This document shows, piece by piece, positions 589 to 61,083 of a DNA stretch of 64,000 nucleotides. This DNA comes from Eledone cirrhosa (taxonomy: Eukaryota). The stretch covers positions 108,004,001 to 108,068,000 of the forward strand of contig OZ024745.1 of assembly GCA_964016885.1 (NCBI GenBank). The letters run 5' to 3'. The translations under genes and the position numbers were made by a program. Numbering within the stretch: the first letter of the stretch is position 1; each line of letters begins with the position of its first letter. Under the pieces are notes generated by a model that did no database searches, was not told the origin of the DNA, and was given only the letters and a program-made list of their open reading frames with translations.

Positions 589-1413
589 CAGGGTGTGGAC
601 AATATTTGTTCGCAATTTTCAACTGCTAATTTTATGCAAATTTTTTTTTACTTCCGTTGTCACTCTTGTCTTCATAAAAACAGTGACTATATTTCCATCA
701 TTTATTTTCAGAATAATTGATTATGAATAATTTTGAACCTCCAAATTTGTGGAAGAGACACGGAGTTCTTCTTGGAATCCGCGCCGGGAGGACAAATAAG
801 GAAATTTCAGACTTTCTCAGCATCAGCAGGAGAATGGTGGAAAAGGTCAGAAAGGAATTGGAAGATTTAGGATTCGACTACGAAGCAACATCAGCGATGA
901 AAACACATGATCGATGATCTGACGCCTTCAGAACGCCTGAGTTTGTCGCTGAAGTTCAGGATATCATCAACAATGAACCTAGCAAGTCAATGCGTTCCAT
1001 TGCAAGGGAGAAAGGCGTGGATGAAAAGCTCATTAGGCTGGTGGTACATGAAGACATTCGCTAAGTTTCATACAAGATGAGGAAAGGACAATTTCTGTCA
1101 AAGGCAATGCAAGAAAAGCGACTGAAGCACGCAAAGAAGCTGATCAACAAGTTGAAACACCCACTGGAGCCAGACATGCTGTGGTTTTTCTCTGACGAGA
1201 AAAACTTCTGTCAAGACCAGAAGGTCAACTCCCAGAACAACAAGTGGCTTGCTGTCTCATCCAAAGACATGCCCAGAGTCATGCAAACAAAGTTTCCAGT
1301 GACAACATTGGTCTTAGGTGTCGTCAGCAGTCACAGTGACGTCATGCCACCACACTTCTTCCCTGAGGGCGTCAAGCTAAACACCGATGGTTACATCCAC
1401 GTTCTGAGCGAGG
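589..1413 (+). mobile_element. Truncated Tc1/mariner-superfamily transposon (maT/DD37D-like) with a transposase pseudogene
   Basis: Starts CAGGGTGTGG directly after (TA)n. The HTH-like ORF 717-917 continues through in-frame stops into 1077-1413, which has WFFSDEKNF (first catalytic D). The right half and right TIR are absent. Confidence 0.8.
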
Positions 1414-3190
1414 TAGCTGTCCTACCTTTGTAGCAGTTGACAATGATGCTACTGCACCAATCTTTTGGTATGACACCTTCTAGTATTACCTGGTTAACAA
1501 TACGTGTGGTTATATGCCTTCAGCTTCTCGGCAGCTATACCCGATGGACCGGTTGCCTTCCCCATCTTCATATCTTTGATTGCCTTACTTACTACATTGC
1601 TGCTGACTTGTACTGCTGGCCCCTCTATAGGGTCTACTTGGGGTAGGGTCTCTTCTTCCCATGCATTCTCCTCATTTAGTAATCTATCATAATGACTCTT
1701 CCATGCATCTTTCTTCTCAGCACTTGTGAGGGCAAGCTCACCTTTATCATTCCGGATACACTTCTCTCCAATGACATCGCAACTCTCTCTGACACACTGC
1801 CTCGCAATCTTGAACACCTCCTGTTTCTGGTCCTCACATTGCAAAACATGCTTGAATTTTCTATCCTCTGCTTCCCTCCTAGCTAAGTATACTTGTCGCC
1901 TAGCTTCCCTCTTGGTCTCTATGTAATGTACCCTGCTCCCCCCATTCTTCCATTCTTTCCATGCCTGTCTCTTGGCCTTAACTGCCTCATCTACCTTATT
2001 GTTCCACCACCAAGTCACTCTCCTCCTGCTTGAGGTCTTACTCCAGCCACAGACCTCATCCGTCACCTCTAGTAAGTTATTTTTTAGGAACTCCCAGTTC
2101 TCTTCTACATTGAATGTCTCTATCTGTTCTTCTTTACTGTCGTAGGCGTTGAGTAAAATATCTTTAAATCTGTTACTGGTTTAGGGGTCTTTCAGCTTCC
2201 AGATCTTTCTTCTCCAGGTTGGCCCCCGTTTCCAGGTTTGTCTAGTTCTGACTGTGAGGTCGCTGACAACTAAGCTATGTTGGGATGTACATTCCTCACT
2301 AGGGAAGGCTTTTGTTTACGACCGTCCATCTGTCACGTCCTCTGATGAGGATAAAATCTATCTGACTAGAGTGCTCCTCTGATCTATAGGTGATCAGGTG
2401 GTTGTCGGGTTTTATAAAGTTTGTGTTACATATCGACATGTCATTGGCGTCGCAGAATTCTAGAAGTCTGAATCCTTCCTCATTTCTTGTGCCAACCCCA
2501 TGGCCTCCATGTACTCTATTGAAGCCGTCGCAGTGTTTACCTACATGTCCGTTAAAATCTCCTGTGATGATTAGGAAGTCATTGTCGTCTGTTAGAGCAG
2601 TAGTGTGCATTAGGGATTCGTAAAACCTATCCTTAAGTTCGTCTGGCAGCCCCGATTGGGGTGCGTAAGCTGATATTATTGTGGTAATTGTTTTATTCAG
2701 GACTAGTCTGAGTTTAATGATTCTTGCATTTACCCTGTACACTGAGATTACTTTATCTACCCACTTGTCAGCTAGTAGTATACCTACACCCATTTCCCAC
2801 CCAGAAAAATTTGTAGCACCGACTTTTTCCTACAAGGACTCTAGCAGACTCTCCTCTCCATCTAGTCTCTTGCACACAGCATACATCAATTTCCTTTCGC
2901 TCTAGCATTTCTACGATTTCTCCTACTCTTCCTTTCATTGAGCCTACATTGATGGTACCAACTCGGAGTTTTGGGCATTTGTCGACACTCGTAGGGAAGG
3001 GTCTCTGGATTGGCGCTTCACATGGGTGCTTGGTAGCTCGCAGATTCATATTTCATCTATTAATTCAGAGTTGCTCAAATTTATTCTCAGCTCATCCATC
3101 CATAACGGTAGGAAAATTGAGGGCTAGAAGAACAGTGGTGGTGGGATAATGGCTGGGTTTGTTGGGCTGGGACAGGGGAGGAGAGAGTTA
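1414..3190 (-). mobile_element. RTE-clade LINE, 5' half (APE endonuclease plus linker), frameshifted and 3'-truncated
   Basis: Minus ORFs 2768-3049 (GTINVGSM, CVQETRW), 2299-2793 (GDFNGHVG, SQIDFIL) and 1494-2066 (WWWNNKV, KATGPSGI). Confidence 0.9.
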
Positions 3191-3381
3191 GTTAGGTAGT
3201 AGTAGCAGAAGAAATATATATATATATACATATAGTAGTAGCAGAAGAAATATATATATATACATAGTATTAAGGATACTATTTATGGTTATGTATATAC
3301 TAAAACCTTTTATAGTTATATATATATTATACCCTAAATAGTGAAAGACAAGGAGGTCAAGTATGTTAAAAATCACTGAAT

Positions 3382-3432
3382 AATTGCTCCGAAGACTCCA
3401 AACCTCGGTTTGGAAGAAACAATTGTAAGCAG
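3382..3432 (+). ncRNA. Degenerate minimal hammerhead ribozyme motif
   Basis: ttgct-CCGAAGA-c tccaaac ctcg gtttgga a-GAAA-caattg-TA-agcag. Stems I and II pair and stem III is palindromic, but the core has U4->C. Confidence 0.5.
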
Positions 3433-3481
3433 ATAAATGATTTAAACAGAACTTTGTTTCATGTAATCTCTATATATATAC

Positions 3482-3513
<32 letters not shown>

Positions 3514-3565
3514 ACATATATATACACATATACATATATATACACATATACATACATATATATAC

Positions 3566-3597
<32 letters not shown>

Positions 3598-3638
3598 TAA
3601 TTCAAAATATTAATAAATATAGACATTCATGTAATCAA

Positions 3639-3710
3639 ATATATTTTATTATATATATTTCGGAGGTACTGTGCTGTTTCCTCAGTACGTCCTCATCAGA
3701 TAAAATATAT
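3639..3710 (-). ncRNA. Minimal type I hammerhead ribozyme motif
   Basis: Reverse complement reads atatattttat-CTGATGA-ggacgtactg aggaaacagca cagtacctcc-GAAA-tatata-TA-ataaaatatat. Stem I is a perfect 11 bp and the core is intact. Confidence 0.8.
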
Positions 3711-4132
3711 AAATTGATGTATGACATACCTCAACTGTGCTGATGGTTCAATTCCAGTCTTGGCAGTGATTAATTATAACAAAACTCAATATTTATATAC
3801 CATAAGTACTAACATGACAAACTACATAGAATGGAGAGTGTGAGTAGGAAAAAATGTAGAAAAAAAAAAAATAAATAAATAAAATATATAAACACATAAG
3901 TACATAAATATTAAATATTTAAATATGTAAATATCCGTATATGAGTACAAAACAAACAAACAAAAAAAAGACAAATGAGGGAGAGCTAAATAGAGGAGAA
4001 AAGGAAAAGATAGAGAGATGAAGATAAAAAGGAAGAGAGGGAGGGATATATATATATATCCGGGAGCTTCCAACAGTAATGGTTGCATTTTTTAAGGGTA
4101 TGTCAATATTTATTTATAAAACTGATCTATAT

Positions 4133-4199
4133 TATATTTTGTCTGATGAAAGCACACCATAATTTAACTTGGTGTCCTTGAAATATGTATAATGAAATA
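4133..4199 (+). ncRNA. Minimal type I hammerhead ribozyme motif
   Basis: tattttgt-CTGATGA(4143)-aagcacacca taatttaact tggtgtcctt-GAAA(4180)-tatgta-TA-atgaaata. Stem I pairs with G-U wobbles. Confidence 0.75.
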
Positions 4200-4351
4200 A
4201 ATATGGTTTTATAAATATAGTTTCCATTTGTTAATATCGTATGTTTACTCCAAATTCTTGTTGAGTGCTTTATATCAGTTATAAAAATATTTGCTTGTTG
4301 TATCCCAACAATTTAAATAGAACTTTTGCATATATATATATATATATATAA

Positions 4352-4571
4352 TATAAGATCAAAAGATGGTTAAAAGAGTTCCAAGTATTTTATTATGCGC
4401 ATTTCAAAAACAAATATCATGGGATGATATTTGCATTTTCATCAGATAAAATAGGGAGACATATGAAGCTTAAAAAACACTTGCGTGCAGTGAAATGTTA
4501 AATCAACATTTGTTCTTGAAATGCGCATAATAAAATACTTGGAACTCTTTTAACCATCTTTTGATCTTATA
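4352..4571. repeat. Long inverted repeat (~60-bp arms) containing the hammerhead motif
   Basis: 4352-4412 is the near-perfect reverse complement of 4511-4571. Confidence 0.9.
4386..4453 (-). ncRNA. Minimal type I hammerhead ribozyme motif
   Basis: Reverse complement reads tattttat-CTGATGA-aaatgcaaatatcat ccc atgatatttgttttt-GAAA-tgcgca-TA-ataaaata. Stem I is a perfect 8 bp and stem III is palindromic. Confidence 0.8.
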
Positions 4572-4660
4572 TTATTTTTATACTCCTGTCCTATAAACTG
4601 TGGAGTGCTACTTATCCGGTATTTGCATTGCTTTATTGTACTACAATAAAACTCACCTCC

Positions 4661-4711
<51 letters not shown>

Positions 4712-5694
4712 TTCGATTTTGTATTTGCTTTGCAAGATTTTTTAATATCAATATACTTTTAAAGGGTCATATACATAAATATGCATGCATATAAACATTT
4801 AATTTTATTCATAGTTGTATAAATAACATTACAAATCGTTTGCAATTCTTTCAGAATGAAAATATAAACAGAGCATATAAATAAATTTACAGTAGAATAT
4901 AACATAACAAATATGTTTTAAATATATACATAAATAACGTTACAAATGCTTCGATAACATTATAAATAGCTCGCAATTCATTCAGAAAGATATATTCTTT
5001 TAATGTTACAATATTAAAGAAAATGTAATAAATATACATAAATACACACTCACTCAAAGAGAGAGAGAGAGTTAATGCAGCCAATATTTTCAAGCCATTA
5101 AATATATGCTTTTCTTTGGGGCTTGCCGAATAGATACATACATATATACGGAGAGATAGGAGGAGAGGGGGGGGGGGGGTACATTGTTGTTGGAAAGGAA
5201 AATGATTATCCATTTAAATTCTTCAATTCACTCAAACCAGATGACATCATCTAACATTGTGTTTATATTATTTGTCTTTTATAATCATTTATCTTGCCTT
5301 TAATAATGTTTTGTTACACTTAATCCCACCGAGGTTAACTTTGCCTTTCATCCTTACAGGGTCGATAAAATAAAGTACTAGTAACGCACTGAAGTCAATT
5401 TAATCGACTTTCCCTTCCAACAAATAGTTGTGCCTAAATCAGAAACTATTATACTTAATAAACCCCCCCCCCCCCCCCCACCACCACCACACACACACAC
5501 ACACCGTTTTTTTTTTTTTTTTTTTTTTACCAACTTGTAATAACAAATATTAGTTAAATAACAAGTATTGAAACATTTCTAAGGCTGTTAAATGATTTAA
5601 GAAATCTATTCTATCATTTGTTGTATATACTGTTATTATCTATCACTTTTTCTTTATATTCTTAAACCTCTCTACTACTATATGTATATCAATA

Positions 5695-5965
5695 ATAACT
5701 GTTTCTACTTTAGGCACAAGGCCAGCAATTATCCAGTACATTACTGGTACTTTATTTTATCGACCCCGTAAGGATGAAAGGCAAAGTCAACCTCGGCGGG
5801 ATTTGAACTCAGATCGTAAAGGGACGTAACTATGCTGGAAAGCATGGCGTCCGACCCTCCACCAATACTGCCAATCCACCTTTCATCCTTACGGGGGTCG
5901 ATAAAATAAAGTACCAGTAATGAACTGTTATTTGCTGGCCTTGTGCCTAAAGTAGAAACAAATAA
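5695..5965. mobile_element. Head-to-head pair of SINE family A copies (tRNA-derived, Nin-domain-like core)
   Basis: A minus copy at 5695-5880 abuts a plus partial copy at 5880-5965. Core: gcctttcatccttacggggtcgataaaataaagtacc. B-box-like gagttcaaatccc. Confidence 0.8.
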
Positions 5966-6036
5966 TAACATTGCTTGAAAATATTATTACTTGGCAATGT
6001 TAATTATTTTTGGTTAACTCACTCTTACTCTATGTA

Positions 6037-6088
<52 letters not shown>

Positions 6089-6224
6089 TGGGAAATGAAA
6101 TTTCGTTTCATTTTTTCCGTTTATCGTTTTCGGTGCACCCGGCCGATTAACCCACTTGATTGGCTTCTCAGCTGTTAATATGCATAAGGTAAGCATATAC
6201 GTTCAACAATCTGGCAGGAAGGTA

Positions 6225-6271
6225 TACGTTGCTGACGATAGCTAATAAACTTGAAACTAGTACAGCCGTAC
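6225..6271 (+). ncRNA. Minimal hammerhead ribozyme motif with decayed stem II, inside a ~190-nt unit bounded by direct repeats
   Basis: tacgttg-CTGACGA(6232)-tagctaataaactt-GAAA(6253)-ctag-TA-cagccgtac. The direct repeat gagtgg(g/a)aaatgaaatttcgtttcattttttccgtttat occurs at ~6086 and ~6275. Confidence 0.6.
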
Positions 6272-6605
6272 TAAGAGTGGAAAATGAAATTTCGTTTCAT
6301 TTTTTTCCGTTTATATATATATATATATATATATATAACAAACCAAGTGGACCATAATGCACCAGAGTACTCGATACTTAAGGTAGTAGAGTGGGTAATA
6401 TATATATATATATATATATATACTGCCATCATTGGCAGTAATTTTTAATTTATAATAAACGAAGCCAAATTTTACATATTTTACTTAATTATTTTACATT
6501 GCTCCGAGGTAAACAAACCAACCTGCGTACTTTGTCGAGTGCTCCAATCTGCATACTGAGGTGTCGGTAAACAACCAACATATACTAAAAAAAAATATAT
6601 ATATA

Positions 6606-6793
6606 TATATAATTACAACTGTGACATAAACAGGTACTTAAGTTTGGCTGGGTTTTGGACTTCACCTCAATTCATTCAGCCAGTCATAAGAAAAAGAAAA
6701 ATATTTTTATTTTTATTTTGACAGCTGAATGAGTTGGGGTCCAGAATCAACCAAACTTAAGTACCTGTTTATGTCACTGTTGTAATTATATAT
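6606..6793. repeat. Long imperfect palindrome with a hammerhead-like variant motif
   Basis: Arms tataattacaactgtgacataaacaggtacttaagtttgg... / ...ccaaacttaagtacctgtttatgtcactgttgtaattata. Confidence 0.85.
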
Positions 6794-7149
6794 ACTAAAC
6801 TCGTCCTATGGACTGGGTGCTCTTACCCTTGGATATTTCTACAAATCTTTTACCACACACACACACACACACACACACTGCATATATGCATACGTCTGGC
6901 TTCCAGTTTCCCTCCACAAGGCATTCATCAACACGAGTCAATAGTAGAAGACATGTTCAAAGGCCGCACAGGTTTACTACAGTATACTGAATGGAGTGTT
7001 TTATAAATATACTGTCTAGATTCACTATAAACATATCAAAATATCAATAACTTATCACTTAATAACTGATTGTAACCCGAGCCGTATAGCCCATATCTGA
7101 ATCGGTGTCTAGTAGTCATCCGAGAAGATATATTATTTCTTAAGTAAAC

Positions 7150-7665: not shown

Positions 7666-8379
7666 TAACTAGAGAGCCTTTACGTAACCACTTGACGTGC
7701 TGAAAATAACAGCCACGTTTATTTTAAATTTTAAAATATACGCCCATATGTATATTGTCGAAATAAAAGATGAGATGAGCAACGGATAGAGCATTTTTGA
7801 TATTGCCGTTATTTAGGTCTAAACAACGGCAATAACTTATATTTGGTTAACTGACATTATTATTAATCCCGACGAGGTTAACTTTGCCTATCATCCTTAC
7901 TGGGTCGATAAAATAAAGCACCAGTAATGCAGAGATAATTGCTGGTCTTGTGCCAAAAGTAAAAACAATTATTATTATAATATATACAGTAAAAAAAAAA
8001 GAAAACAAAAATAACATCATAATAAATAAAAGAACCTCTAACTTACACGATATAATCCAACTTGAGTGAGACTGTTTTAGTAATTGGTAACAGGGGCAGT
8101 CATCTGAAATTATGGTTGAATATACTAGATATCGTCACACTTAGACGCAACCTTGAACTTTTACTAACTGGCATATATCTTTATAAGTTTATTGGACAAT
8201 GTTGTCTGTCTCACTAGAGTCCTGCATGGAATTAACTGCAATACAGATTATTTTATGATCAGGACCAAACTCGGATTTAAGATTTAATCCACTCACACCA
8301 GAGAACGCTTCCCCACACCGCCCGGGCACGCATTAATGGGACAGCGATGCTGAGTTCCCCAACTGTAAAACAAGGACAG

Positions 8380-10269: not shown

Positions 10270-13200
10270 TCTATTTATTTGCCACCAGGGCATCAAAGTT
10301 TGGGACAAATACAAAGGGGAGAGTTTACATACATTTAAAAAGACGTGTAAAAAACATATAACAAATTAAATTTAACAATCGATGTCCTCAATAGGGAGAG
10401 GGCGTTGACGTGGGTCGCACACACCCTCGATAAAATGTGCAACCCTCCTCTTCAGGGGCACAAAGAGCGGGTGCTCCCTTCCTCTCCTCCGTCTTCTCCT
10501 CTCTCACCTACAGGCTGAGATAGAGAGAAGGCCCATTCACTCGGGCCATTCTCGCCACTTTCACCCATCTTTCATAAAACTTGCTGGAGTAGAGCACCTC
10601 TCTCTCCATTCTGATCCTTCTTCTAAAGTGGTACTTGAAAAAAAGGACCAGTTGTTGGCCGGAGAGAAAGGTGTCTGACCTCAGCCCTTTCAACCTCGTC
10701 CACCATACAACCTCTTTCGCCATAGCTATCACACAGAGGAAAACCGCCTCTCCTTCGTTTTTGAAAGGGGAGGCGGTTTGATCGTGACAATGTATTCGGT
10801 GGTCAACTGGATTGGTCCCACCCGCGACAGTAGTCGTTCCACATAGCCCCACAGGTCAGCAACGTCCGGGCAGTGTACGAATGCGTGTGCGACGGTTTCC
10901 TCGTCACACACGTATCTCGGACAGATCTTCTTCGAGGGGTCCCTACCCGGGCGCCCGTGTCTGTAGAGCTTGTCTCGAACGGGTAGAGCTCCTCGGTAGT
11001 ATTGCCAAGCCAGGAACTTTTGGAAGTTGTCCATCGGTCCCGGGCCAAACGTCCTACCGAACAGACTGGCTAGCTCGTCTTCGTCCATGCCCAGAGCCTC
11101 TCCGAGAGCGTCGTCGCACTTACTGCGCACCAACCCTCTATAGAATGTTGAGGTTGAGTCTCCACTGATTGCCGGATCCGCTTGCCAGAGGGCCGTGAGC
11201 GCCTGGGCACATTCAATGTGCCAGTCGCCCACTTTTCTCGGTCTTTGCTTGACCCAGGATTGCAGCTCGGTGAGTGAGACGAGTCTCGGAAAGGCTCGCC
11301 TCACAAACAGGGCCCACACCGGCTGACCGGTGAGGAATACCTGGAGGTGCCGTAGCCTTGTCTACGTATCGTCAGCCACGGCACCCCCAGCCCTCCGTTC
11401 GAAGGGTGCTGACAGCAGATGGATCTTCTCACCAAAGGAGTCCTCTTCTTCCAAAGGAATCGGAAGAGCGCGCGCTCCATTTTGGCGAGTGTTTTCTCTG
11501 GGCATGGCACGACGGTCAAGCGGTAGTAGATGACGGACGCTATATAAGCATTCGCCACCTCCGCTCGACCTTTCAGGGATAGTTTGCACTCGGCCCACTT
11601 CTGGGCGAGTGCAAACACCCTGCTCGTTACCTCGTCCCAGTTTTTCTCCACCTGGAGGTCCGGTCCGAACCAGACCCCGAGCAGCTTCACCGGTCCCTCC
11701 GTCCAGCGTCTGACGATGCCGTCGGAGGGCATCGGTTTTCCCCTCCACGTTCCGAGTTGCAAACCGACGGACTTGTCCCGGTTCAGCTTGGCTCCTGTAA
11801 ACCTTTCGTATTCCTCCAGTAAGGTGCCGATCTGCCCGATTTCCGAGGCGCACGACACCATTACTGTCACGTCATCGGCGTAGGCCGACACCGCTTTCCG
11901 CAATCCCGGTTCCAAGGGGATGCTCTGCAACAGCTCCAGCTTCCGCAGTAGTGGCTCGAGAGCCAGCACATACAGAAGGGAGGAGAGATGGCATCCCTGT
12001 CGGATGGATCGCGTGATTTGGAACGGCTCTGAGAGGTAGCCGTTCACCTTGACCTTCAAGCAGTTGTTGCTGCTGTGCATTGCAGCAATCCAGCCCTGAA
12101 AACGGGTCCGAAGCCTGCCGCCGCGAGCACCGCATCCAGGTACCGAAGGTCGACCCTATCGCACGCCTTAGATTGATCCAATTTGATCAGGGCCCCACCA
12201 AAGCCGGGTTCGTTCCCTACCCTCTCTATTGCATGAGGTGGAGGTTGTCGTATATGGACCTGGACGGGATTGCGCATGTCTGCGCTTCTCCCACCAGGTT
12301 CCCGACGACAAGCGCCAATCTCTTCGCTAACACCTTGGCCAAAATCTTTAACTCTGTGTTTAGCAGAGTTATGGGCCTGAAGTTATCTATGTCATCCCCC
12401 TTGTTCTCGTCCTTCCTCACCAGCGTGACTACGCCCTTGGTCACAGAACTTGGAATTCTCCCGTTCTGTTGCCAGTTTCAGTAGACCGCCTCGAGGAGAC
12501 CGGAGAACAAGTCTGGCATCGCTACATAAAGTTCGTATGGTAGACCATCGAGACCCGGAGATTTGCGTTTGCCGCATTGGCTCAGCGCTTCCCCTATTTC
12601 AGCGGCTGAAATCGGCCTTTCGCAGGACTTCGCCTCCCCGTCCGAGAATCGCGCCAGGCCGTCGAGGTGTGAACCGAAATCCATGGCCTCACCCGGCCCG
12701 CCGCCCCTCCCGAACAGTCGTACAAAGCGCCGTTGAAAAGCCGCGCTCATTCGCTCAGGTTCAAGGATCACGCATCCATCGTGGTCCTTCAAAGACCAAA
12801 TCGTGGACTTGTTTCCACTTTTTGCCTGTCACTCGGGCCCAGCTAACAGCTTTGGCTCCCTCGTTACCCAGAGCACGTATTTTACTCCTGACAACGCAGC
12901 CCTCATGCTTCGCGTCATAGAACTGGTCTAGGGCCGTTCTTGACGCCAGCACGCCGGCCACGTTGCCACTTCTAATCGCCTCTTCTACTCTATTTATTAA
13001 TTCCCTTTCAGTTCTATTTCTATCTGATGCTAATTCCTGACTAAAACCTATCGATTCTATTCTAATTTCTCTCTTGGGAGAGCCCCACCACCTGCTGTTG
13101 ACAATTGCCCCCGTCAACCGCTGCTTAACTAGAGTGCTAATCCGTTTACTGTAAGCTTTGTTTGTCGGTAAGGACAAGTTTAGCTTCTAGTAACCGGGTC

Positions 13201-14830
13201 CTTGTCGATGGGTTCTATCAAGGTTGACCACACCGGTCACCAACTTGTGATCCGAATAGTCAACCATGAACATTCGTGGACAGCTTAATATGTCCCTATC
13301 CTTATTTCTAACTAGGAACCTATCTAGGTACGACCTAGATGTTCCGTTAAAATTAGTCCACGTCCACAGTGCCACAGTCGGAAAATCTAGTCGATATCTA
13401 TCGGCCAGATCAGATCGGCCGATTAATCGTTTGAGGCTGTCACCCCCCCCCCCCTCTATCGGGACATGCCCTATATAGTCCCAACGTGCATCCAGGATAC
13501 CATTCCAGTCCCCCCACTAAAAGCAAGGAGCGAGACGTTCCCAGGAAAGTCTCCAGGTGTCGGAAGAAGTCCGGTCGCGGTGTTCCAGATGGGGCATACG
13601 CAGCCACCAGCCTAAAGGCTCCACCTTCACTACTGCCGACGTCTAGAACCACCAGTCGACCCTCCGGGTCCAGGTGTACCTTCTGTGTGGCAAGACCCAG
13701 GAGTTTTCGCAGCAGAACGACAACCCCACCCCCACCGCTCGGCTGACAGAGAGATGCGTAGATCTCAAAGTTGTCGAAGATGGGGGGCCAGTTGGCGCTC
13801 GCAAATAGCCATTACATCCACTCTGTGCGACCTGAGGTCATTTAAGAGTTTGCCCTGTTTCCAGGACATCCTCAGGCCGTGTGCATTCACACATCCAACT
13901 CTTATATTGGCCATGTTGGTGCTGAAGTGTTAAAAGGAAGAAGAAAGGAAATTACTTACCTCTTCGTCTCCTGGGGACCAGGCTACACAATTTCCATGGG
14001 GGTGTTGGAAGGGTTGTTTGGTGGTGGTGGTGGTGGGGGGTGGGGTGAGGACATCAGTGTGTGGTGAGGTTGGGGTGTGGGTGGGGAAACATCTCAATAG
14101 GACGCGGCTAAGTGGTTTGGTGCAGGTGGTCCCCACATCCATTGGATGGGTCTTTTTCAGAGTTACATAGGTTTCCGTTGGGACCCTAATCATCATTAGG
14201 TGCGGTTTGCCCGCTGCGTAGGTGAAAGTGATCCCTTCGGTTTCCACCGAAGGGTTATTGTCTATTGCTTTCATCAAAGTTTTATTGTTCTTGTTAATGT
14301 ATGTATAGTGTTTTTGTTGTGTTGTGTTTGTTTTTGTTTGTTGTTCTTGTGCGTGTTTGCGTTTTGTAGTATGTGTTATGTTTTCGGGAGGGGTGGGTTT
14401 TTTTGTTTGTGATGTTTGTTCTGTTTGTGCTGGTGGTTGTGTGTTTGTTGCATGTTTGTTAGTGCCTTTTTTTTCCCTTTTCACCTGTTGGAAGTGTTCT
14501 CCCTCGTCGTCACTGGTTGACGTTGATACGGAGTATATAAGGGGTATATTTTGGGGTTTTGTTGTGGTTGCGATGTTAATTGATATAGAGAGGAGTATTG
14601 GAAGAGAGTTCCGTGTAGTATATATGCAAGTATATATGATACATCAAATAAAATCGTACTCTCTAGGTTTTTAGGTTGTGTTTCATACTGCCCTTGTGTC
14701 TTTTCTTATGCTTACGTTGCGAACACTTTCCACTTTCCCATTTGCTGAAGAAAAGGTCTTATGTGAGCCGCCGAAGTTCCGATCTTGCGGAGGAGCTCGA
14801 CTGAAAGGGGTCTAAGTACGCATGTGTTTG
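10270..14830 (-). mobile_element. Near full-length Tx1/L1-clade LINE, decayed by frameshifts and stops
   Basis: ORF2 starts at ATG 13914 (MANIRVGCVNAHGL). It has endonuclease motifs (SYLDRFL, YSDHKLV), RT motifs (KSPGLDG, NFRPITLLNTELK, IRQGC, AYADD) and a C-terminal Cys/His motif (CPRYVCDEETVAHAFVHC), ending at 10508. An ORF1 remnant lies at 13930-14484. The 5' boundary is approximate. Confidence 0.9.
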
Positions 14831-30556: not shown

Positions 30557-32887
30557 TATTTAATTACATATTACAGTGGGTCCTCGATATACGGTAGTTC
30601 TTTATCTGGTAAATTCACAGATACAGTTTTTGGTCGTGTTTTGTTTATATTGTGCCGTAGCGTCACCTGTAGTAAGCAATAAATTCCCCCTTGAATTCGT
30701 GGAAACTGACTGCTATTCGAATTCTAGGAAAATTGTGTTACTACTGCTATCGTACTAACTGACCTTACCGAGAAACTGGCCAATCACTGGCGAGTTCAGA
30801 TATCGGTCGATGATGTCATAACTCTTAACTGATCACTTCAGTTCGGCAAACTAGCGTGTCCTCTCAGTGAGAGAATTTTTGCTGAACTGAAGTGATCAGT
30901 TAAGAGTTATGACGTCATTCAAAGTAAGAGAAAACCCGACGGCGTGTTTTTGGAGCATAATTATCACGGCATATCTTATAACCCTATATCTCATGGCCCC
31001 AAAACGTCCTGCGAATATTGCTGATGCAGATGGAAAGGCCAAACGCATGAGGAAGAGCCTAACTTTGGAGATAAAGCTGGACACTTTGAAAAGGAAGGAA
31101 CAGGGACAAGCTCCGTCCGACATAAGTCGTAACTTAGGCCTAGCCCAGTCTACAGTCTGGACTGTTTTAAAAAATAGTGAGGCTGTCAAAAAAGCTGGGG
31201 AGAATGCTACGAGTCTACAGAGTAAATTGTTGGCCAAACATCGTGAGCCGATTATGGATAGGATGGAAAGGTTGCTCAAAATTTGGATCGACGACCAAAA
31301 TCATCAAAATATGCCTCTGTTTTTAAATGTAATTAGTGAGAAAGCATTGTCCATTATTGACAGGCTCAAGACTGAAATGGGGGTGGAGAACTTTGTATTC
31401 AAGGCAAGCAAAGGCTGGTTTGATAAGTTCAAACGACGTTCGAGTCTTCACAACATAAAAGTTACAGGTGAGGCTGTCAGTTCCGACAAAGAAAGTGCTG
31501 AAAAATTCAAGACAGAGTTAGAGAAATGCATTGCAGAGAAGGGGTACAGCAAAAAACAGGTTATTAATTATGATGAAACAGGACTTTATTGGAAAAATAT
31601 GACCAGTAATACTTATATTGACAAGGAGGAGAAAAGTGCGAAGGGGTTCAAAGCCTCAAAGGACCGCGTTACTCTGTTACTTGGAGGGAATGCAGAAGGA
31701 GATTTAAAGCTAAAGCCACTCATTATCTCCCATTCTGAAACTCCAAGAGCACTCAAGGGGTTACTTAAGCAATACCTACCAGTAATATGGAAGTCTAATA
31801 AGAAGGCATGGCTGATCACTTCAATTCACCAGGAATTTTTCACTTCATATCTGTCACCAACCCTTAAGGAATATGCATTAGCTAACAACATTGCCAACCG
31901 TTTTCTGCTATTAGTGGACAACGCCCCCCAGCCACCCACGGGCAATGGAAGACTGGTCAGAAATTATTGAGGTTTTGTTTCTCCCCCCCCAAACACCACA
32001 GCTCTCATTCAGCCAATGGATCAAACAGTCATCAAAAAATTTAAGGCATACTACCAGCGGAGAACCATGCAGCAGCTGATAAAGGACACAGATGGACCTG
32101 ACAAGCCCACGATCAAGGAATGGTGGAAATTGTACATCAAGCACGGCTTAGACAACATCAAGGCATCTTGGGAAGAAGTGAAGCAGTCTACTATGAACTT
32201 CGCCTGGAAGAACGTGTGCGTGGCTTGGACATAAAAACTCTAAGAGAATGTCTCAGGAGCATCGAAACAATCTTAGAAACCTTGAAGGAGCATGACCCCA
32301 ACCCTGCTAGGAGCAGCAAAGTGGCTCAAGACGTCGACAAAAGTGTCAAGATTTACGAAGAAATGTATGAGGCCAAAAGAAACACCACTAAACAGTCCTC
32401 CATCTACTCTTTCTTCAAGCCAGTCACACCTGCCAACCGTGCTACAGCTGGCCCTTCAACATCCACTGCAGTCAACAAGTTTGTTGGTTTTGAGCCGCCC
32501 ACATCACCCTCATCCTCCCCTGTCAACTCAGTCCAAGATGAGTAAGGGCTGAAACCCATACGGTCCCTTCGCCTCGGGAGGGACAAATGAAGAGGCACAT
32601 CATCTGATGGACATCTATGTGTAAGGTACAGTAAATAAAAAAAAACATTATTTCTTTTCTGTAGGGATGACTTTTTCGATGTGCTGGAACGCATCCCTAC
32701 ATATTTCATGTTATAATGGGTTCTTTATACGGTGGGGGTTTCAGGAACGCATATATACCGTATATCGAGGACTCACTGTACATATGTTTCACTGTTGATC
32801 AGCTCAAGGAACAATCGATTAATGATCGATCCTGACTCTGGAATCAGAAGCTCCTCATATATGTGTTAACATGTAGACTCGCATCTA

Positions 32888-51700: not shown

Positions 51701-54700
51701 GATAAATATGCAGCCTGCCATGGGGCCTGCAAGGCTAACTCCTGCTATCCCATGGAAAAAAGGCATTAAAGCACATATTAACTGTTGAAACCTCAGAATA
51801 GAGCAAAATACAGTGGAAACTGAGAATTAGTGAACCAACATTTACTGTTGCTTTCCATCCTCCTCCTTTGCCCACTTATTCCTGAGGGGGGGGGGGGTCA
51901 TAGGGGCAGAGTCTTCAAATACTCCTTTCCAGCAGGTACTGTCAGAAGCAACTGTCTCCAATTGATCTGGTTGGATCCTCAAGTGAGACCAGCTGAGCCT
52001 GAGCCTATTGTTTCCAATATTTGACAAAACCTTCATGATATAAATATTCCATAACTACTATCAACAATTAAAGATGATTAAATAACTGTTTCTACTTTAG
52101 GCACAAGGCCAGCAATTACCCAGTACATTACTGGTACTTTATTTTATCAATAACTCGTCAAACTTACAATTGTGATACAGAAGGAAAGTTTTACCTTTTT
52201 TTGTAAAATGCGAGTAAGGCTCTTATGTTTTCTTTCTAAGTCTTCTTTTCTTTTGGTCATAGCTAACAGTTTCTGATGCTCAATATCCGTCTAGGTAAAA
52301 ATAAACAATCAATGATATAATAAAGATGGCGACAAGGAAGGTCGCTTGACCACGTCTTGACCAAACAAAATATAATATTTTCACCAAAAACTGCCCTTTA
52401 AACACATGTCAGATGGATTACAATATTCATTATTACAATTACTTTCACTGTTCCCTAACAACTAGTACCAGTTTCAAGATAGAATTATCTTAACGAAGTA
52501 TATATAATTTCACTTGATTTTCGCCAACGAACCACGTGTGGACATGGACGGGGAAAAAAGGAAAAAAAACAAAACAAATCACTACGTCCCTTAAGGATCG
52601 CAGTAAGTACTCCACAAAACATATAAACAACAATATACACACAGATTTATATACAGATACATACCATATGCATATACACACACGTGAAAAGAAACCACAC
52701 TATTGCGTGTGAGACACTATACCGGCCAATTTTACCAATTTACATTGGTAAAATATTTCTTAACATTGACCTCGCTTCTAACCCACATACACCTTTTAAT
52801 TATATATATATATACTAGCAGCTGAAAGTTAATAATTTGAAAAAAAAAAAAAAAAAAAAAAATATTATTGAAAGTTTACTATAAAGAAGCAGTATCAGGG
52901 GAAAAAAAAAAAACAAAAAAAAAAAAAAACGTTATTCGCTGTTAATAAACAACTGCCTTCTACAGTACGTTTCATTTAACTTTCGCAGCATATTTATTTG
53001 TTTACATGCACAGACTCTTCTACACACACACAACATTTAGGAAAACGGAAACAAAATACACAAAAAAAACAGACATTTTATTTCTATCGTAATCAAGTGC
53101 GCTAAACCTATATTGTTTACATTCTGTGTTTTTCTACGGATGGGTAGAAATAACAAAATTGCCATGGTGATGTCCATCGATGAAATTTGCGACAAAACTG
53201 GTCGATGTCCAAAAATAGAACATTGCCCGGAAGATCACACCTGCCATATCTGTACGGAACCCGAAAACTCGTTCCGTAATCGCTGGGTCGAATGTGGAAC
53301 CTGTCGCATCTCTGTCTGCCTTCAATGCGCCACAGGCTTCCGGAAGATCCCAGGCCAAAATAAGAAACATCACATTGCTACGATGGATAGACTCTGGGAG
53401 ATGGTCCAGCTAACAAACTGGTCCTTTCAGTGCCTGGGCTGTATGCCTGCTTCTCCCATTACTGCGGAACAACAACAAAGACCGAAGATCGTGTCTTCTA
53501 CCATTGTTCCTGAACAACAACAACAAAAACCGAGGATCGTGTCTTCCTCTACCATTGTCGCTGAACAACAGCAAAAACCAACGACCGTAGCTTCTGCTAC
53601 TACCCCCGTTGAAGGACTTCATCAACAACAGCAACCCATGTCTTCCTCACCCGTTACTTTTCAACAACAACAACCGACGACTGTGTCTTCTACCATTCCT
53701 GTTGAAGGAGAAGAACAACAACAAAAACCGACCGTCAATACGGAGTTTGAGGAAATACGGCAAATGATTTCCGCTTTAAGTCAAGAAATAGCGGAAATAA
53801 AATCAAGCGTTCGTGTAGAACCCCACAATGAGGGATCTTACCGGAGTGCCTTGTTAAAAAATCTCCGCGTACCTCATGTTGAACCTAGACGCATTGAGAA
53901 TGCCACTGAAACTGCAAACCACGAAGTGATTGCCATCGGTGTGCCGGAAGACATAGTTGATCTTCAGGCATTTGCTACCAGTTCATCCAAAGACCTGGGC
54001 TGTGCTCCCGCAAAGGGTGCTCTACGCCTTGGCCGACCAGGCCCGAAACCCAGGTTAATTAGACTGTCGTTTTCAAACTCGGCTGAGGCACGTTCATACC
54101 TTCTAGCCTCTGATAAAGCTAGGCGTGAAAGTCGGATTGCTTTCCGAACACGTCCTGGTCTTCCACCTGATGTCCGCCCAAAGTTGCGTGCTGCAGCTTC
54201 CCTAAACCGCAGCTCGGCAGAACATGAAAGCTTCAGCCTACGAGATGATGGGCAGATATGGAGGTTTGTTAAGGCTGGCGAATCATGGAAAAGAGACACC
54301 AGCTGGTCTGAAAACAGTGTACCCACAACAACTGACAATAAAGAAACTGAAAAAACTCTGGGAAACTAAATCAGAACAACCTGCCATCCCCTGCACATAA
54401 TCATAGACTGGAATCAAAGTACAAACTGTTGTCCTTGAATGCACGTAGTCTATGCAATAAGATTCATCTTTTTGACTCCTACGTCAAAAGTATCAACCCG
54501 GACTTCATTACAGTCACGGAAACTTGGGCACATCCCTTACTCTGTGATGGGGTTTTCAGCATGACTGGCTACAACCTGTTTCGTAAAGACCGTATTAATC
54601 GTCGTGGTGGTGGTGTAATGGTCTACGTTCGGTCAAATCTGTCGGCAATTCCTTGTGCTGATTTGAACCAATCACAGCAGGAAGTTTTTTTCTGCGATAT

Positions 54701-57363
54701 ACGTATGACCATGTCAACACTGCTACTTGGAGTCGTTTACCGTCCCCCAAATTACTATCAGGACACTCAACTTTGTGATATCCTCAGAGCTGCTGCCAGG
54801 AAGACAGCCACTTATGTTTTCATTGCAGGTGACTTCAATCACCCTGAGATTGACTGGGAGACCTTTCGTTGGCCGCCAAGTGCAGATGACTTCCTTGAGC
54901 TGGTGCTGGACTCGAGTTGGTCCCAGGTGGTCACCTCCCCAACGAGAGGTGACAACACTTTGGACCTACTCTTCACCACTACTCCTGAAACGGTCATTAG
55001 TGTTACTGCTGAGGAACCTTTAGGTGACTCTGATCATGCTATGATCATTGCCAATCTATCCCTCATGGGCAGTAACAAGAACCACAACCATCTCCAAACT
55101 GCTCACTTTGACTGGAATAGAGCAGACTGGAACTGTTACTGCACCGAGTTGCAACGGCCAAACTGGCTTGAGTTCTATGACTCTGGAGATGTCAACACTG
55201 TACTCCAGAACATCCTGAGCTCAATATGGACAGCATGTGCAGCATCGGTGCCACGTAAGCGGAAAAAACATCCTAAAAGCGCAATTTGGGAGACTGCAGC
55301 AGTCCGTCTTGCCAGAAAAGAACGGCGCAATGCTGAACGTGAGTACAAACTTCACAAATCAGACATTAATAGGAAGAGGCGAAATAGATCGTCCAACCAC
55401 CTCAAACAGGTGACAAAAAAGGCAGTGCTTCAATTTGAGCAGCGCATAGCAACCAGCCCTGACAGTAAGGTGTTCTGGAAGTATGTTCACTCAAAGCAGA
55501 GGCCTCACTCTCCAGTTGGTCCTCTTCGCAATCCCCACACAAGCCAGGTTACTGACGACCCCAAGGAATGCGCAGAGCTCATTGCTGAATGCTATGCAGG
55601 CATTTTCACCATTGAAGACCAGAGTGTACCATCTCCACCACCTATGACACCGGACTCTATTACAACCATGGAATTTACACCTGCAATGCTGCGACGTCAC
55701 CTAAAAAATAAACGCAACCATGCCTCTCCTGGTCTTGATGGTGTTACGTACCTGCTTCTTAAACGTGGTGGGTACTTCCTTCTACGCCAGTTATCACGCT
55801 TCTTCCAATTCTGTCTGAACAACAGTGCTACTCCAGAACAGTGGAAAACTGCCAGTGTAATTCCTCTGTTCAAAAAGGGTGACCGCACATCACCTGTGAA
55901 CTATCGTCCAGTCAGTCTTACTAGTTGCATCGCCAAACTGATGGAATCCTGTGTCAGAGAAACACTTTGGAACTTCTGGAGCTCTCACAGTCTTATCCGG
56001 CCTTCGCAATTTGGATTTATCCCCAACTCCAGCTGCTGTGATCAACTTATAGAGTTTCTTGAGGACATCACCCGGATCACTGATGGCGGCTCATGGGTGG
56101 ATGTTGTTTACCTTGACTTTGCGAAGGCCTTCAATTCTGTGCCGCACAAAAGGCTTATGGCAAAACTCTCTGCAATGGGTGTGAAGGATGATCTTTTTAA
56201 CTGGTTGAAGTCCTTCATTCTCAGTCGAAGAGAGGTAGTCACGGTTCTGGGACAGCATTCCTCACCATATGAGATGTCATCTGGTGTACCTCAGGGATCT
56301 GTTCTTGGCCCCCTTTTGTTTGTGGCATATATTAATGACATAGATGCCAACTTAAGGAATGCCACAGTACTAAAGTACGCAGACGACATCAAGCTGTACC
56401 TTGAGATAAAAAGGACAGATCCTGAACACTATAGATCTTGCTTGCAGTCTGACCTGGACACAATGCAACAGTGGATCTCAGACTGGCAACTCAAGCTAGC
56501 TGTGGACAAGTGCACCACCATGCATTTTGGGAGTAAAAACCCAGCGTCCACATACTCCCTCCACAGCACTAATATCAAGAAGTCTTCCTGTGAACGTGAC
56601 CTGGGCATTACGGTCAGCAGCGATTTGCGTTGGACGAGGCACGTCTCTAAAATTGTCAAGAGGGCCGAGGGTGTCTTAGCATCACTCAGCAAGACCTTTG
56701 TCAGCCGCTCTCCAGATATCTATTTAAGGCTGTATACAGCTATGGTGCGACCACACTTAGAATTTGCATCACCAGTCTGGAACCCCTATCTTGCTCAGGA
56801 CATTGACCGCCTGGAAACTGTTCAGAGACGTGCAACCAAGCGAATACCCTCCATCAGGCATCTACCATACTCTGATCGCCTTGCTTCCCTGGGCATGGAT
56901 TCATTGAAGCTCCGACGCCTGGCAACTGACTTGGTAAACACCCACAAAATTGTTAACCATGTTGCCAACAACAACCCTGAGTGCCTTTTCGATTTCCATG
57001 TGTCTAACACACGTGGACATGCCCACAAAGTAAGAAAACAGCACAGTTCCCATGACTTTCGGAAACATTTTTTCACGCTCAGAGTTGCTGAAGCATGGAA
57101 CAAACTACCTGCATCAGTTGTTAGCTGTCGAGACGCTGCATCCTTTAAGGCCTCCATGCTTCCCGAGATCCGCCAACACTACAGCTAACACATACAAACA
57201 TGTACTTCCCTGGCATTTGTGTATTATTCTATGTACTATATTGACGAGTTGTAGTGCACCTGAGCACTTTACACAATAATTTCATTATTATTATTATATT
57301 GTAGATAATTGATTACGATAGTCAACGTTGGGATAATAGTGATGACAATGATGCTGATGATGG

Positions 57364-60447: not shown

Positions 60448-60757
60448 TATCAATAATATTAATAAATGGAAAATATCTTTATAAAACCATATTTATTTTA
60501 TTATACATATTTCAAGGGTACCAGTATTTTGGTACGCTTTCGTCATATAAAGTACAATATTTGGTTTAAAGAATAGTGACATATCGACATATGATCTCAT
60601 AACATTAAGTTCATATGTGGATATGTCACTATCTTTAAACCAAATATTGTATTTTATATGACGAAAGCGTACCAAAATACTGGTACCCTTGAAATATGTA
60701 TAATAAAATAAATATGGTTTTATAAAGATATTTTCCATTTATTAATATTATTGATAT
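60448..60757. repeat. ~310-nt near-perfect palindrome; each arm carries a hammerhead motif with a C3->A change
   Basis: Right arm: tattttat-ATGACGA(60658)-aagcgtacca aaatac tggtaccctt-GAAA(60691)-tatgta-TA-ataaaata. The left arm is its reverse complement. Confidence 0.9.
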
Positions 60758-61083
60758 TGTACTCCAGAAGAAAACTGTTGAGTGCTTCTAATCTGTTATA
60801 AATTGACTTTATTGAATAATCAACAAAACAAATAACACATTGTTTATATATATATATAAGTGTTTCAAACTTTATTTTATCATGAGTTAAAGGTCTATAG
60901 ATTTTTCCCTGGATTTTACTAAATTCTGTGGATGAATTTATATCCTGATTCTCTTTTGAGATGAGTTTGAGTTATTTTTCCTAAATCTTTCGTTAACTAC
61001 TTTTCCCATCTTGACGTTATAGTCGCATATATGTTATAGAATGCCGTTAGCTTCTTGCTAAAACAATCTCTATACCTCTCATT

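Follow-up and report, generated by a model that had tools for sequence, protein, structure and literature searches.

The window analysed here is a 64,000-nucleotide stretch of the Eledone cirrhosa genome (assembly GCA_964016885.1, contig OZ024745.1, positions 108,004,001 to 108,068,000 of the forward strand), in which six hammerhead ribozyme motifs lie within 3.5 kb, with cores that start at 3389+, 3699-, 4143+, 4445-, 6232+ and 6725+ (window position and strand; the corresponding repeat families are called F1 to F6 in this order). This cluster is very likely a pile of independent retroelement ends within (TA)n sequence. Five of the motifs mark the 3′ ends of families of Penelope-like elements (PLEs) with Hydra-clade motifs, and the sixth belongs to a non-coding 420-nt repeat, F5, which a Penelope-like enzyme likely copied in trans, with uncleaved RNA as the likely template. 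The original prediction, made from the sequence of the window alone, had placed all six motifs correctly and had taken them for one diverse non-autonomous family.

A strict type I hammerhead descriptor finds four matches between 3300 and 6900, where shuffled sequence gives a mean of 0.011 and none of 1000 shuffles reaches four; with stem I set to at least 6 bp, the whole window holds three matches, where shuffles average 0.07 and none of 100 reaches three. The six motifs are thus beyond chance, as had been claimed. That they are chance products of AT-rich sequence could be argued from a few weak matches to a loose descriptor elsewhere in the window (14745+, 21531- and 37856+, which we regard as chance-level) and from Rfam, since the hammerhead search proposed earlier as a check yielded no hammerhead among 82 matches in the window at E ≤ 10; the shuffles refute this idea, and its probability is next to nil. 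The proposed count against shuffled sequence was also made in 859 kb of loci fetched from the genome, where the descriptor has 280 matches in 15 clusters and none in each of five shuffles, although these loci were picked by the motifs and their shuffle control mainly tests the descriptor.

The CUGANGA...GAAA...UH core and three helices are present in 3699-, 4143+, 4445- and 6232+, so that the layout originally ascribed to all six motifs holds for four. A relaxed descriptor adds 3389+, and 6725+ was confirmed by direct reading; both have core deviations that are family-wide. The first has the core CCGAAGA and a stem II closed by a C.A mismatch, and the second has the core CUGAAUGA together with CAAA in place of GAAA (G12 now C). 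Since this column is G in 31 of 41 F6 copies and C in none, the G12 change is best read as decay of the window copy. Stem II had been said to pair in every motif; besides the mismatch in 3389+, the window copy of 6232+ has no stem II fold (dG 0.0), and 59 of 64 F5 copies carry a G that restores a 4-bp stem. An inverted and decayed hammerhead copy at 6679- had been overlooked. The claim of a palindromic or near-palindromic stem III stands: none of the six inserts (4–6 nt) forms a hairpin as a monomer and all form a duplex as a dimer, with computed energies of -2.2 to -10.5 kcal/mol. The pieces that carry the motifs are bordered by (TA)n tracts and the window has no match to a PLE protein, also as described earlier. 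Judged by their sequence, the motifs are real hammerhead folds that sit in (TA)n, have a stem III suited to dimers, conform to the Penelope/retrozyme type and are predicted to cleave.

The helices also covary across independent families, as the original prediction held. The descriptor required stems I and II and placed no demand on pairing in stem III, and stem III is nevertheless fully self-pairing in 11 of the 15 clusters (1.3 expected). Two families have fixed core changes, namely U4C in F1 (the fourth core position is C in 42 of 43 copies, in a family whose copies are ~99% identical) and an extra A after A6 in F6 (40 of 41 copies); both kinds of core have been reported as low-activity natural variants in other organisms (PMC3088659). 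A CCGA core also occurs in another hammerhead, unrelated to that of F1, at L233:5532 (-), seen as one match, so U4C may have arisen twice. Families with weakened cores and many copies bear on whether PLE hammerheads need efficient cutting.

Each motif was searched separately in the 3.0-Gb assembly (1796 contigs), with 40 candidates scored and 30 loci fetched per family; the loci discussed (L numbers) are the best-scoring 20–30 per search. First-look candidates for F1 to F6 numbered 2268, 1404, 994, 747, 2028 and 1873, which are not copy numbers. Rows in which the tail half of the query L002_RT hit an unrelated repeat were left out. Comparison of the loci indicates that the six motifs belong to six unrelated repeat families, and that 3389+, 3699-, 4143+, 4445- and 6725+ mark 5′-truncated 3′ ends of five PLE families. 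Extended F1–F4 loci run in the order (TA)n, inverted arm, reverse transcriptase (RT), linker, GIY-YIG endonuclease (EN), 3′ untranslated region (UTR), hammerhead, tail, (TA)n. From the open reading frame (ORF) through to the hammerhead, independent loci align collinearly over 2254 nt at 97% identity in F1, 2709 nt at 92% in F2, 1325+1445 nt in F3 and 2464 nt at 90% in F4, and in the older F6 the hammerhead lies on the same strand as, and downstream of, an EN-like match in 17 of the 19 loci fetched with the upstream part of F6. An association of the motifs with GIY-YIG/RT Penelope ORFs had been proposed earlier as a check.

These results largely refute the view that all six motifs form one diverse, non-coding retrozyme family. 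The window has no PLE coding sequence, the fold and (TA)n context are common to all six and F5 is indeed non-coding, all of which agree with such a family; five of the families are nevertheless collinear with RT-EN frames, into which F1–F4 and F6 run on instead of forming a non-coding tandem unit, and F5 has no similarity above shuffles to the seven Penelope-like 3′ regions compared. We consider a single family extremely improbable, and only for 6232+ does the non-autonomous retrozyme originally proposed survive.

The F1–F4 frames contain RW[RK], DKT, YRDD, CxCX5C and C-terminal CxxC and CxH motifs, with no CxxC between GIY and YIG and no CCHH. In an alignment of 107 sequences, DK[TS] occurs in 107, DKG in 0, YRDD in 107/107 and RW[KR] in 98; CxxC between GIY and YIG is found in 0 of 98. 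By these motifs the F1–F4 frames fit the definition of the Hydra clade given by Craig et al. (2021, PMC8557442). The F6 frames are too decayed for motif reading and are visible as tblastn matches only. A predicted model of an intact 713-aa relative (pLDDT 92.8), whose family is 45% identical to the F1 frame, has TERT as its top five Foldseek matches (E 4e-8 to 2e-7, TM about 0.33), and this model indicates that the RT of these families is related to telomerase. GIY-YIG (PF01541) matches the homolog P0080 at 1e-5, above cut-off. Argonauta hians and a bivalve are the sources of the named homologs of the element protein, and sequence searches of the PDB with the Hydra frame and the alignment gave no match.

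The intact 713-aa frames belong to a very abundant Hydra family (L353, L354, L323-L352), for which 150 of 150 scored matches are 94–100% identical to the EN query; near its 3′ end, reading by eye shows a hammerhead-like fold in which stem III is longer and the core is CAGAAGA. An F2 copy is adjoined by a different PLE-like fragment, whose linker is of the CxxC type (L028:1691-2272). The spacer between two F1 ends at L225 was rejected as a candidate, as it contains an RT of the long interspersed nuclear element (LINE) type and a microsatellite.

The elements share with the published EN+ (endonuclease-bearing) PLEs of the Hydra clade a C-terminal GIY-YIG domain, the RW[KR], DKT, CxCX5C, CxxC and CxH motifs, insertion into (TA)n, a hammerhead placed close to the 3′ end, and copies with inverted arms and a tail on one side (PMC8557442). 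They differ in that at least five families lie here in one 3.5-kb pile, in the core variants U4C and extra A, in tails of ~90 nt or more (30–40 reported), and in a distance from EN to hammerhead of ~0.35–1.5 kb, so that some elements here exceed the <3 kb reported for the clade. The minimal hammerheads described in PLEs by Cervera and de la Peña (2014, PMC4209133) have the same type I fold, dimer-suited palindromic stem III and long variable stem II, and likewise occur mostly as single truncated copies, with opposite-strand pairs 100–700 bp apart; here, by contrast, the stem III inserts measure 4–8 nt and G10.1-C11.1 is retained only in F2 and F6 of the six.

The insertion footprint was read from copies fetched with queries downstream of the cut site. 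In F3 all 29 3′ ends (29/29) fall at one base in (TA)n, 141 nt past the cut site, the 5′ ends are scattered from -20 to -1352 relative to it, and 17 of the 29 copies have inverted arms, 15 of which end at +46 to +56, ~90 nt short. F2, F4, F6 and F7 (a further family with a tail in the window) each have two clusters of 3′ ends ~90–100 nt apart, with the long end on few copies, and F1 has a tail arm. Thus, the inverted arms, one-sided tail and 5′ truncation by which EN+ PLEs are recognised are all present. In PAc Poseidon of Anolis (Frangieh et al. 2024, PMC11167929), where a tail likewise lies between two 3′ ends, the targets are AT-rich and nothing points to ends at the site of hammerhead cleavage, such tails are tied to two internal RT start sites and the signature is called unique to PLEs; Poseidon belongs to another clade, and the mechanism is transferred here by analogy. 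No 5′ end lies at the cut site in 29 F3 copies or in 29 F5 copies, the nearest in F5 being 6 nt after and ~8 nt before it. Since no copy begins at the cleavage site, the templates were probably uncleaved or re-ligated RNA, in line with the report that hammerhead cleavage is protein-assisted and not needed for insertion in vitro (PMC11167929).

By its sequence F5 (6232+) appears to be a non-coding, non-LTR (long terminal repeat) retrozyme-type element. Its unit is 412–431 nt long with 35% GC, a longest Met frame of 60 aa and one hammerhead, whose core is nearly invariant across 64 copies; the 4-bp, U.U-closed stem II resembles by eye the Hydra hammerheads in the supplement of PMC8557442, and a diverged subfamily has retained stem I through change on both sides. 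Most dispersed copies have 0.5–2 units and many are short; 21 of 79 runs in the loci examined, some of which overlap, have at least two units, and two arrays reach at least 35 and at least 23. The window copy lacks ~230 nt of the unit after ~6266. A search for the F5 unit in an index of RNA runs listed no run. Of 28 visible 3′ ends, 13 fall at +211–217 and 13 at +269–274 (26/28 at two sites), and 10/28 have a tail-out arm that ends at a family end in TA, 8 of these combining one short and one long end. Penelope-driven mobilisation is supported by the two fixed 3′ ends, the (TA)n flanks and the tail-out arms. A bolder reading, to which we give somewhat less than even chances, is that F5 is an undescribed and probably cephalopod retrozyme with the two-start tail footprint of Penelope, copied in trans by a Hydra-clade RT-endonuclease whose template was uncleaved multimeric RNA instead of monomer circles.

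The published retrozyme route would instead have F5 dimers cleaved, ligated to a monomer circle and reverse transcribed by rolling circle with a PLE or LINE RT. Retrozymes of mussels and corals form circles (PMC7229834), and F5 has tandem units, 35% GC, a circular fold with z = -4.4 and copies that continue across the cut site, which would be possible with a ligated circle. Part of that fold energy, however, comes from a microsatellite hairpin, and adjacent units are scarcely closer to each other (median 96.9% identity, at least 99% in 2 of 34 adjacent pairs) than units from different loci are (95.6%), which argues against copying from a single monomer circle in young arrays and has little force for old copies. 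On balance we find the circle route unlikely. Quite improbable, in our judgement, is that F5 is satellite DNA from an old PLE end, dispersed at the DNA level with the hammerhead as a relic. The two long arrays would suit a satellite, as would higher-order periods of 4, 11 and 2 units (L231+L318, L319 and L233, respectively) at 0–4 substitutions, and no F5 partner emerged from the seven PLE 3′ regions compared; most dispersed copies, however, have few units, fixed 3′ ends and PLE-type inverted arms, and neither the near invariance of the core nor the two-sided change in stem I would be expected of a relic.

Several observations weigh against the reading of F5 as copied by a Penelope-like enzyme, and some against the wider account of the pile. 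The locus-specific periods indicate that the long F5 arrays grew at least partly at the DNA level. Only 19 of the 28 F5 3′ ends pass a strict TA test, 10 of 20 apparent inverted arms fail the test for a family end in TA (some stem from an internal hairpin), and the short end adjoins an internal TA-rich tract, where slippage or recombination could produce it. F5 showed no similarity above shuffles to the seven PLE 3′ regions, in a genome that holds more families, and was not enriched beside the most abundant Hydra family tested (12/58 vs 31/217 loci, p=0.23); lacking both homology and enrichment, that family was rejected as its partner. The sampled loci are biased to young copies because the best-scoring ones were taken. 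Finally, the element frames have no Pfam RT match, and GIY-YIG (PF01541) was found in just one of seven, at a sub-threshold E of 0.003 in the F1 EN. A 5.9-kb spacer at L218 was rejected as an autonomous F5 parent, being a gypsy-type LTR element inserted in an F5 array.

For the pile as a whole, the proposed sequence of events, drawing on published Penelope biochemistry, is as follows. The GIY-YIG domain would nick (TA)n on both strands, and RT would start inside the RNA at one of two sites 3′ of the hammerhead, giving a short end or a long "tail" end; early termination would leave short, non-coding copies. Each insertion would keep its TA flanks, to be reused by later ones. Cutting by the hammerheads, predicted only for paired motifs or where a protein assists, would trim tandem transcripts and would probably be dispensable for the insertion step.

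The features of the cluster are listed in Table 1. In the loci examined, the family of the tail fragment at 6339-6397 has a 3′ end of GAAA followed by a long stable hairpin; no 5′ half that would complete a possible hammerhead was recovered there. Further along, an older F3 relative with inverted arms (60456-60802) carries hammerheads at 60658+ and 60546- with C3 decayed and a stem II that is different yet still pairs. The window also contains a LINE with an upstream 442-aa frame and an uninterrupted 945-aa endonuclease-RT frame (53041-57188) and a remnant of a Pogo/Tigger-type DDE transposase (30891-32545). From their translations we take 590-3200 and 10700-13800 to hold a mariner-like transposase fragment and decayed LINE fragments. 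A short repeat that is common and presumably SINE-like (short interspersed nuclear element) has pieces in both orientations at 5322-5967 and ~7860-7970.

Table 1. Retroelement ends, tails and (TA)n tracts of the hammerhead cluster (window positions)
Feature	Position	Strand	Evidence
F1 inverted arm (3′ tail extension)	3264..3350	-	100% to tail of long F1 copies L212, L229
F1 3′ end with hammerhead 1 (core CCGAAGA at 3389; predicted cut after 3427)	3347..3467	+	98% to 3′ end of RT-EN element L212
(TA)n/(TACA) tract, target of F1 and F2	3471..3597	.	sequence
F2 5′-truncated 3′ UTR with hammerhead 2 (core 3699, 11-bp stem I; predicted cut after 3650)	3594..4053	-	87-90% to 3′ ends of RT-EN elements L221, L031, L032
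F3 5′-truncated 3′ end, long 3′ end, hammerhead 3 (core 4143; predicted cut after 4191)	4057..4332	+	99% to RT-EN elements L210, L223
F4 arm, short 3′ end, hammerhead 4 (core 4445; predicted cut after 4394)	4344..4512	-	92-96% to RT-EN elements L224, L226, L227
F4 inverted arm, 3′ half of hammerhead and long tail	4508..4662	+	75-nt inverted repeat, 96%; tail matches L227
(TA)n tract	4664..4710	.	
(TA)n tract	6045..6085	.	
F5 retrozyme-type unit, hammerhead 5 (core 6232; predicted cut after 6262), long 3′ end	6086..6311	+	matches every L231 array unit in two pieces
(TA)n tract at F5 3′ end	6312..6337	.	
Tail fragment of a further (TA)n-flanked repeat family	6339..6397	- (inferred)	55 BLAST rows in fetched loci; inverted arms in copies
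F7 tail, starting just 3′ of the family's hammerhead cut site; hammerhead absent here	6435..6590	+	family hammerhead 29 times in 24 loci
F6 inverted arm with decayed hammerhead (core 6679)	6600..6703	-	83% to L244
F6 3′ end, hammerhead 6 (core CUGAAUGA at 6725, G12 decayed to C), long tail	6702..6853	+	family copies

Hammerheads in Hydra PLE ends are already known, octopus included: Hydra-1_Obim of Octopus bimaculoides is listed with a hammerhead and a (TA)n preference (PMC8557442). The suggestion that the elements were undescribed in this lineage therefore fails at the level of the clade and keeps some substance at that of the family, as the Hydra-1_Obim hammerhead differs by eye from all 15 clusters here. 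An octopus annotation reports 30 recently active Penelope families (PMC13282606), and the portion of that article available to us does not mention ribozymes; its repeat library, or the supplements of a 2026 preprint (bioRxiv 10.64898/2026.07.22.740005), may already contain these families. That PLEs mobilise retrozymes is likewise a published idea, drawn from other evidence: PLEs were proposed as mobilisers of the mussel retrozymes (PMC7229834), and the preprint argues for a PLE origin from co-occurrence and from similarity to PLE pseudo-LTRs (pLTRs). The metazoan non-LTR retrozymes of these two reports share with F5 a non-coding tandem unit of ~420 nt with one type I hammerhead per unit, low GC, a range from monomers to long arrays and the presence of PLEs in the same genome. 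F5 differs in that no target duplication was seen and no sequence link to a PLE end was found, and in its PLE-type tail and inversion footprint, a feature not analysed in the accessible parts of either report. The main text of the preprint does not mention tails, octopus, molluscs or cephalopods, and we found no description of a cephalopod retrozyme in the literature searched, whose coverage leaves out most subscription papers.

Most of the cluster is thus ordinary debris of a known retroelement clade, and F5 is its useful part. The mover of animal retrozymes has so far been argued from co-occurrence and sequence similarity, and the insertion footprint of F5 points to Penelope-like enzymes. 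As the same genome supplies both the putative RNA template, F5, and intact 713-aa candidate proteins, copying in trans is directly testable and, if true, would provide evidence at the level of the insertion itself.

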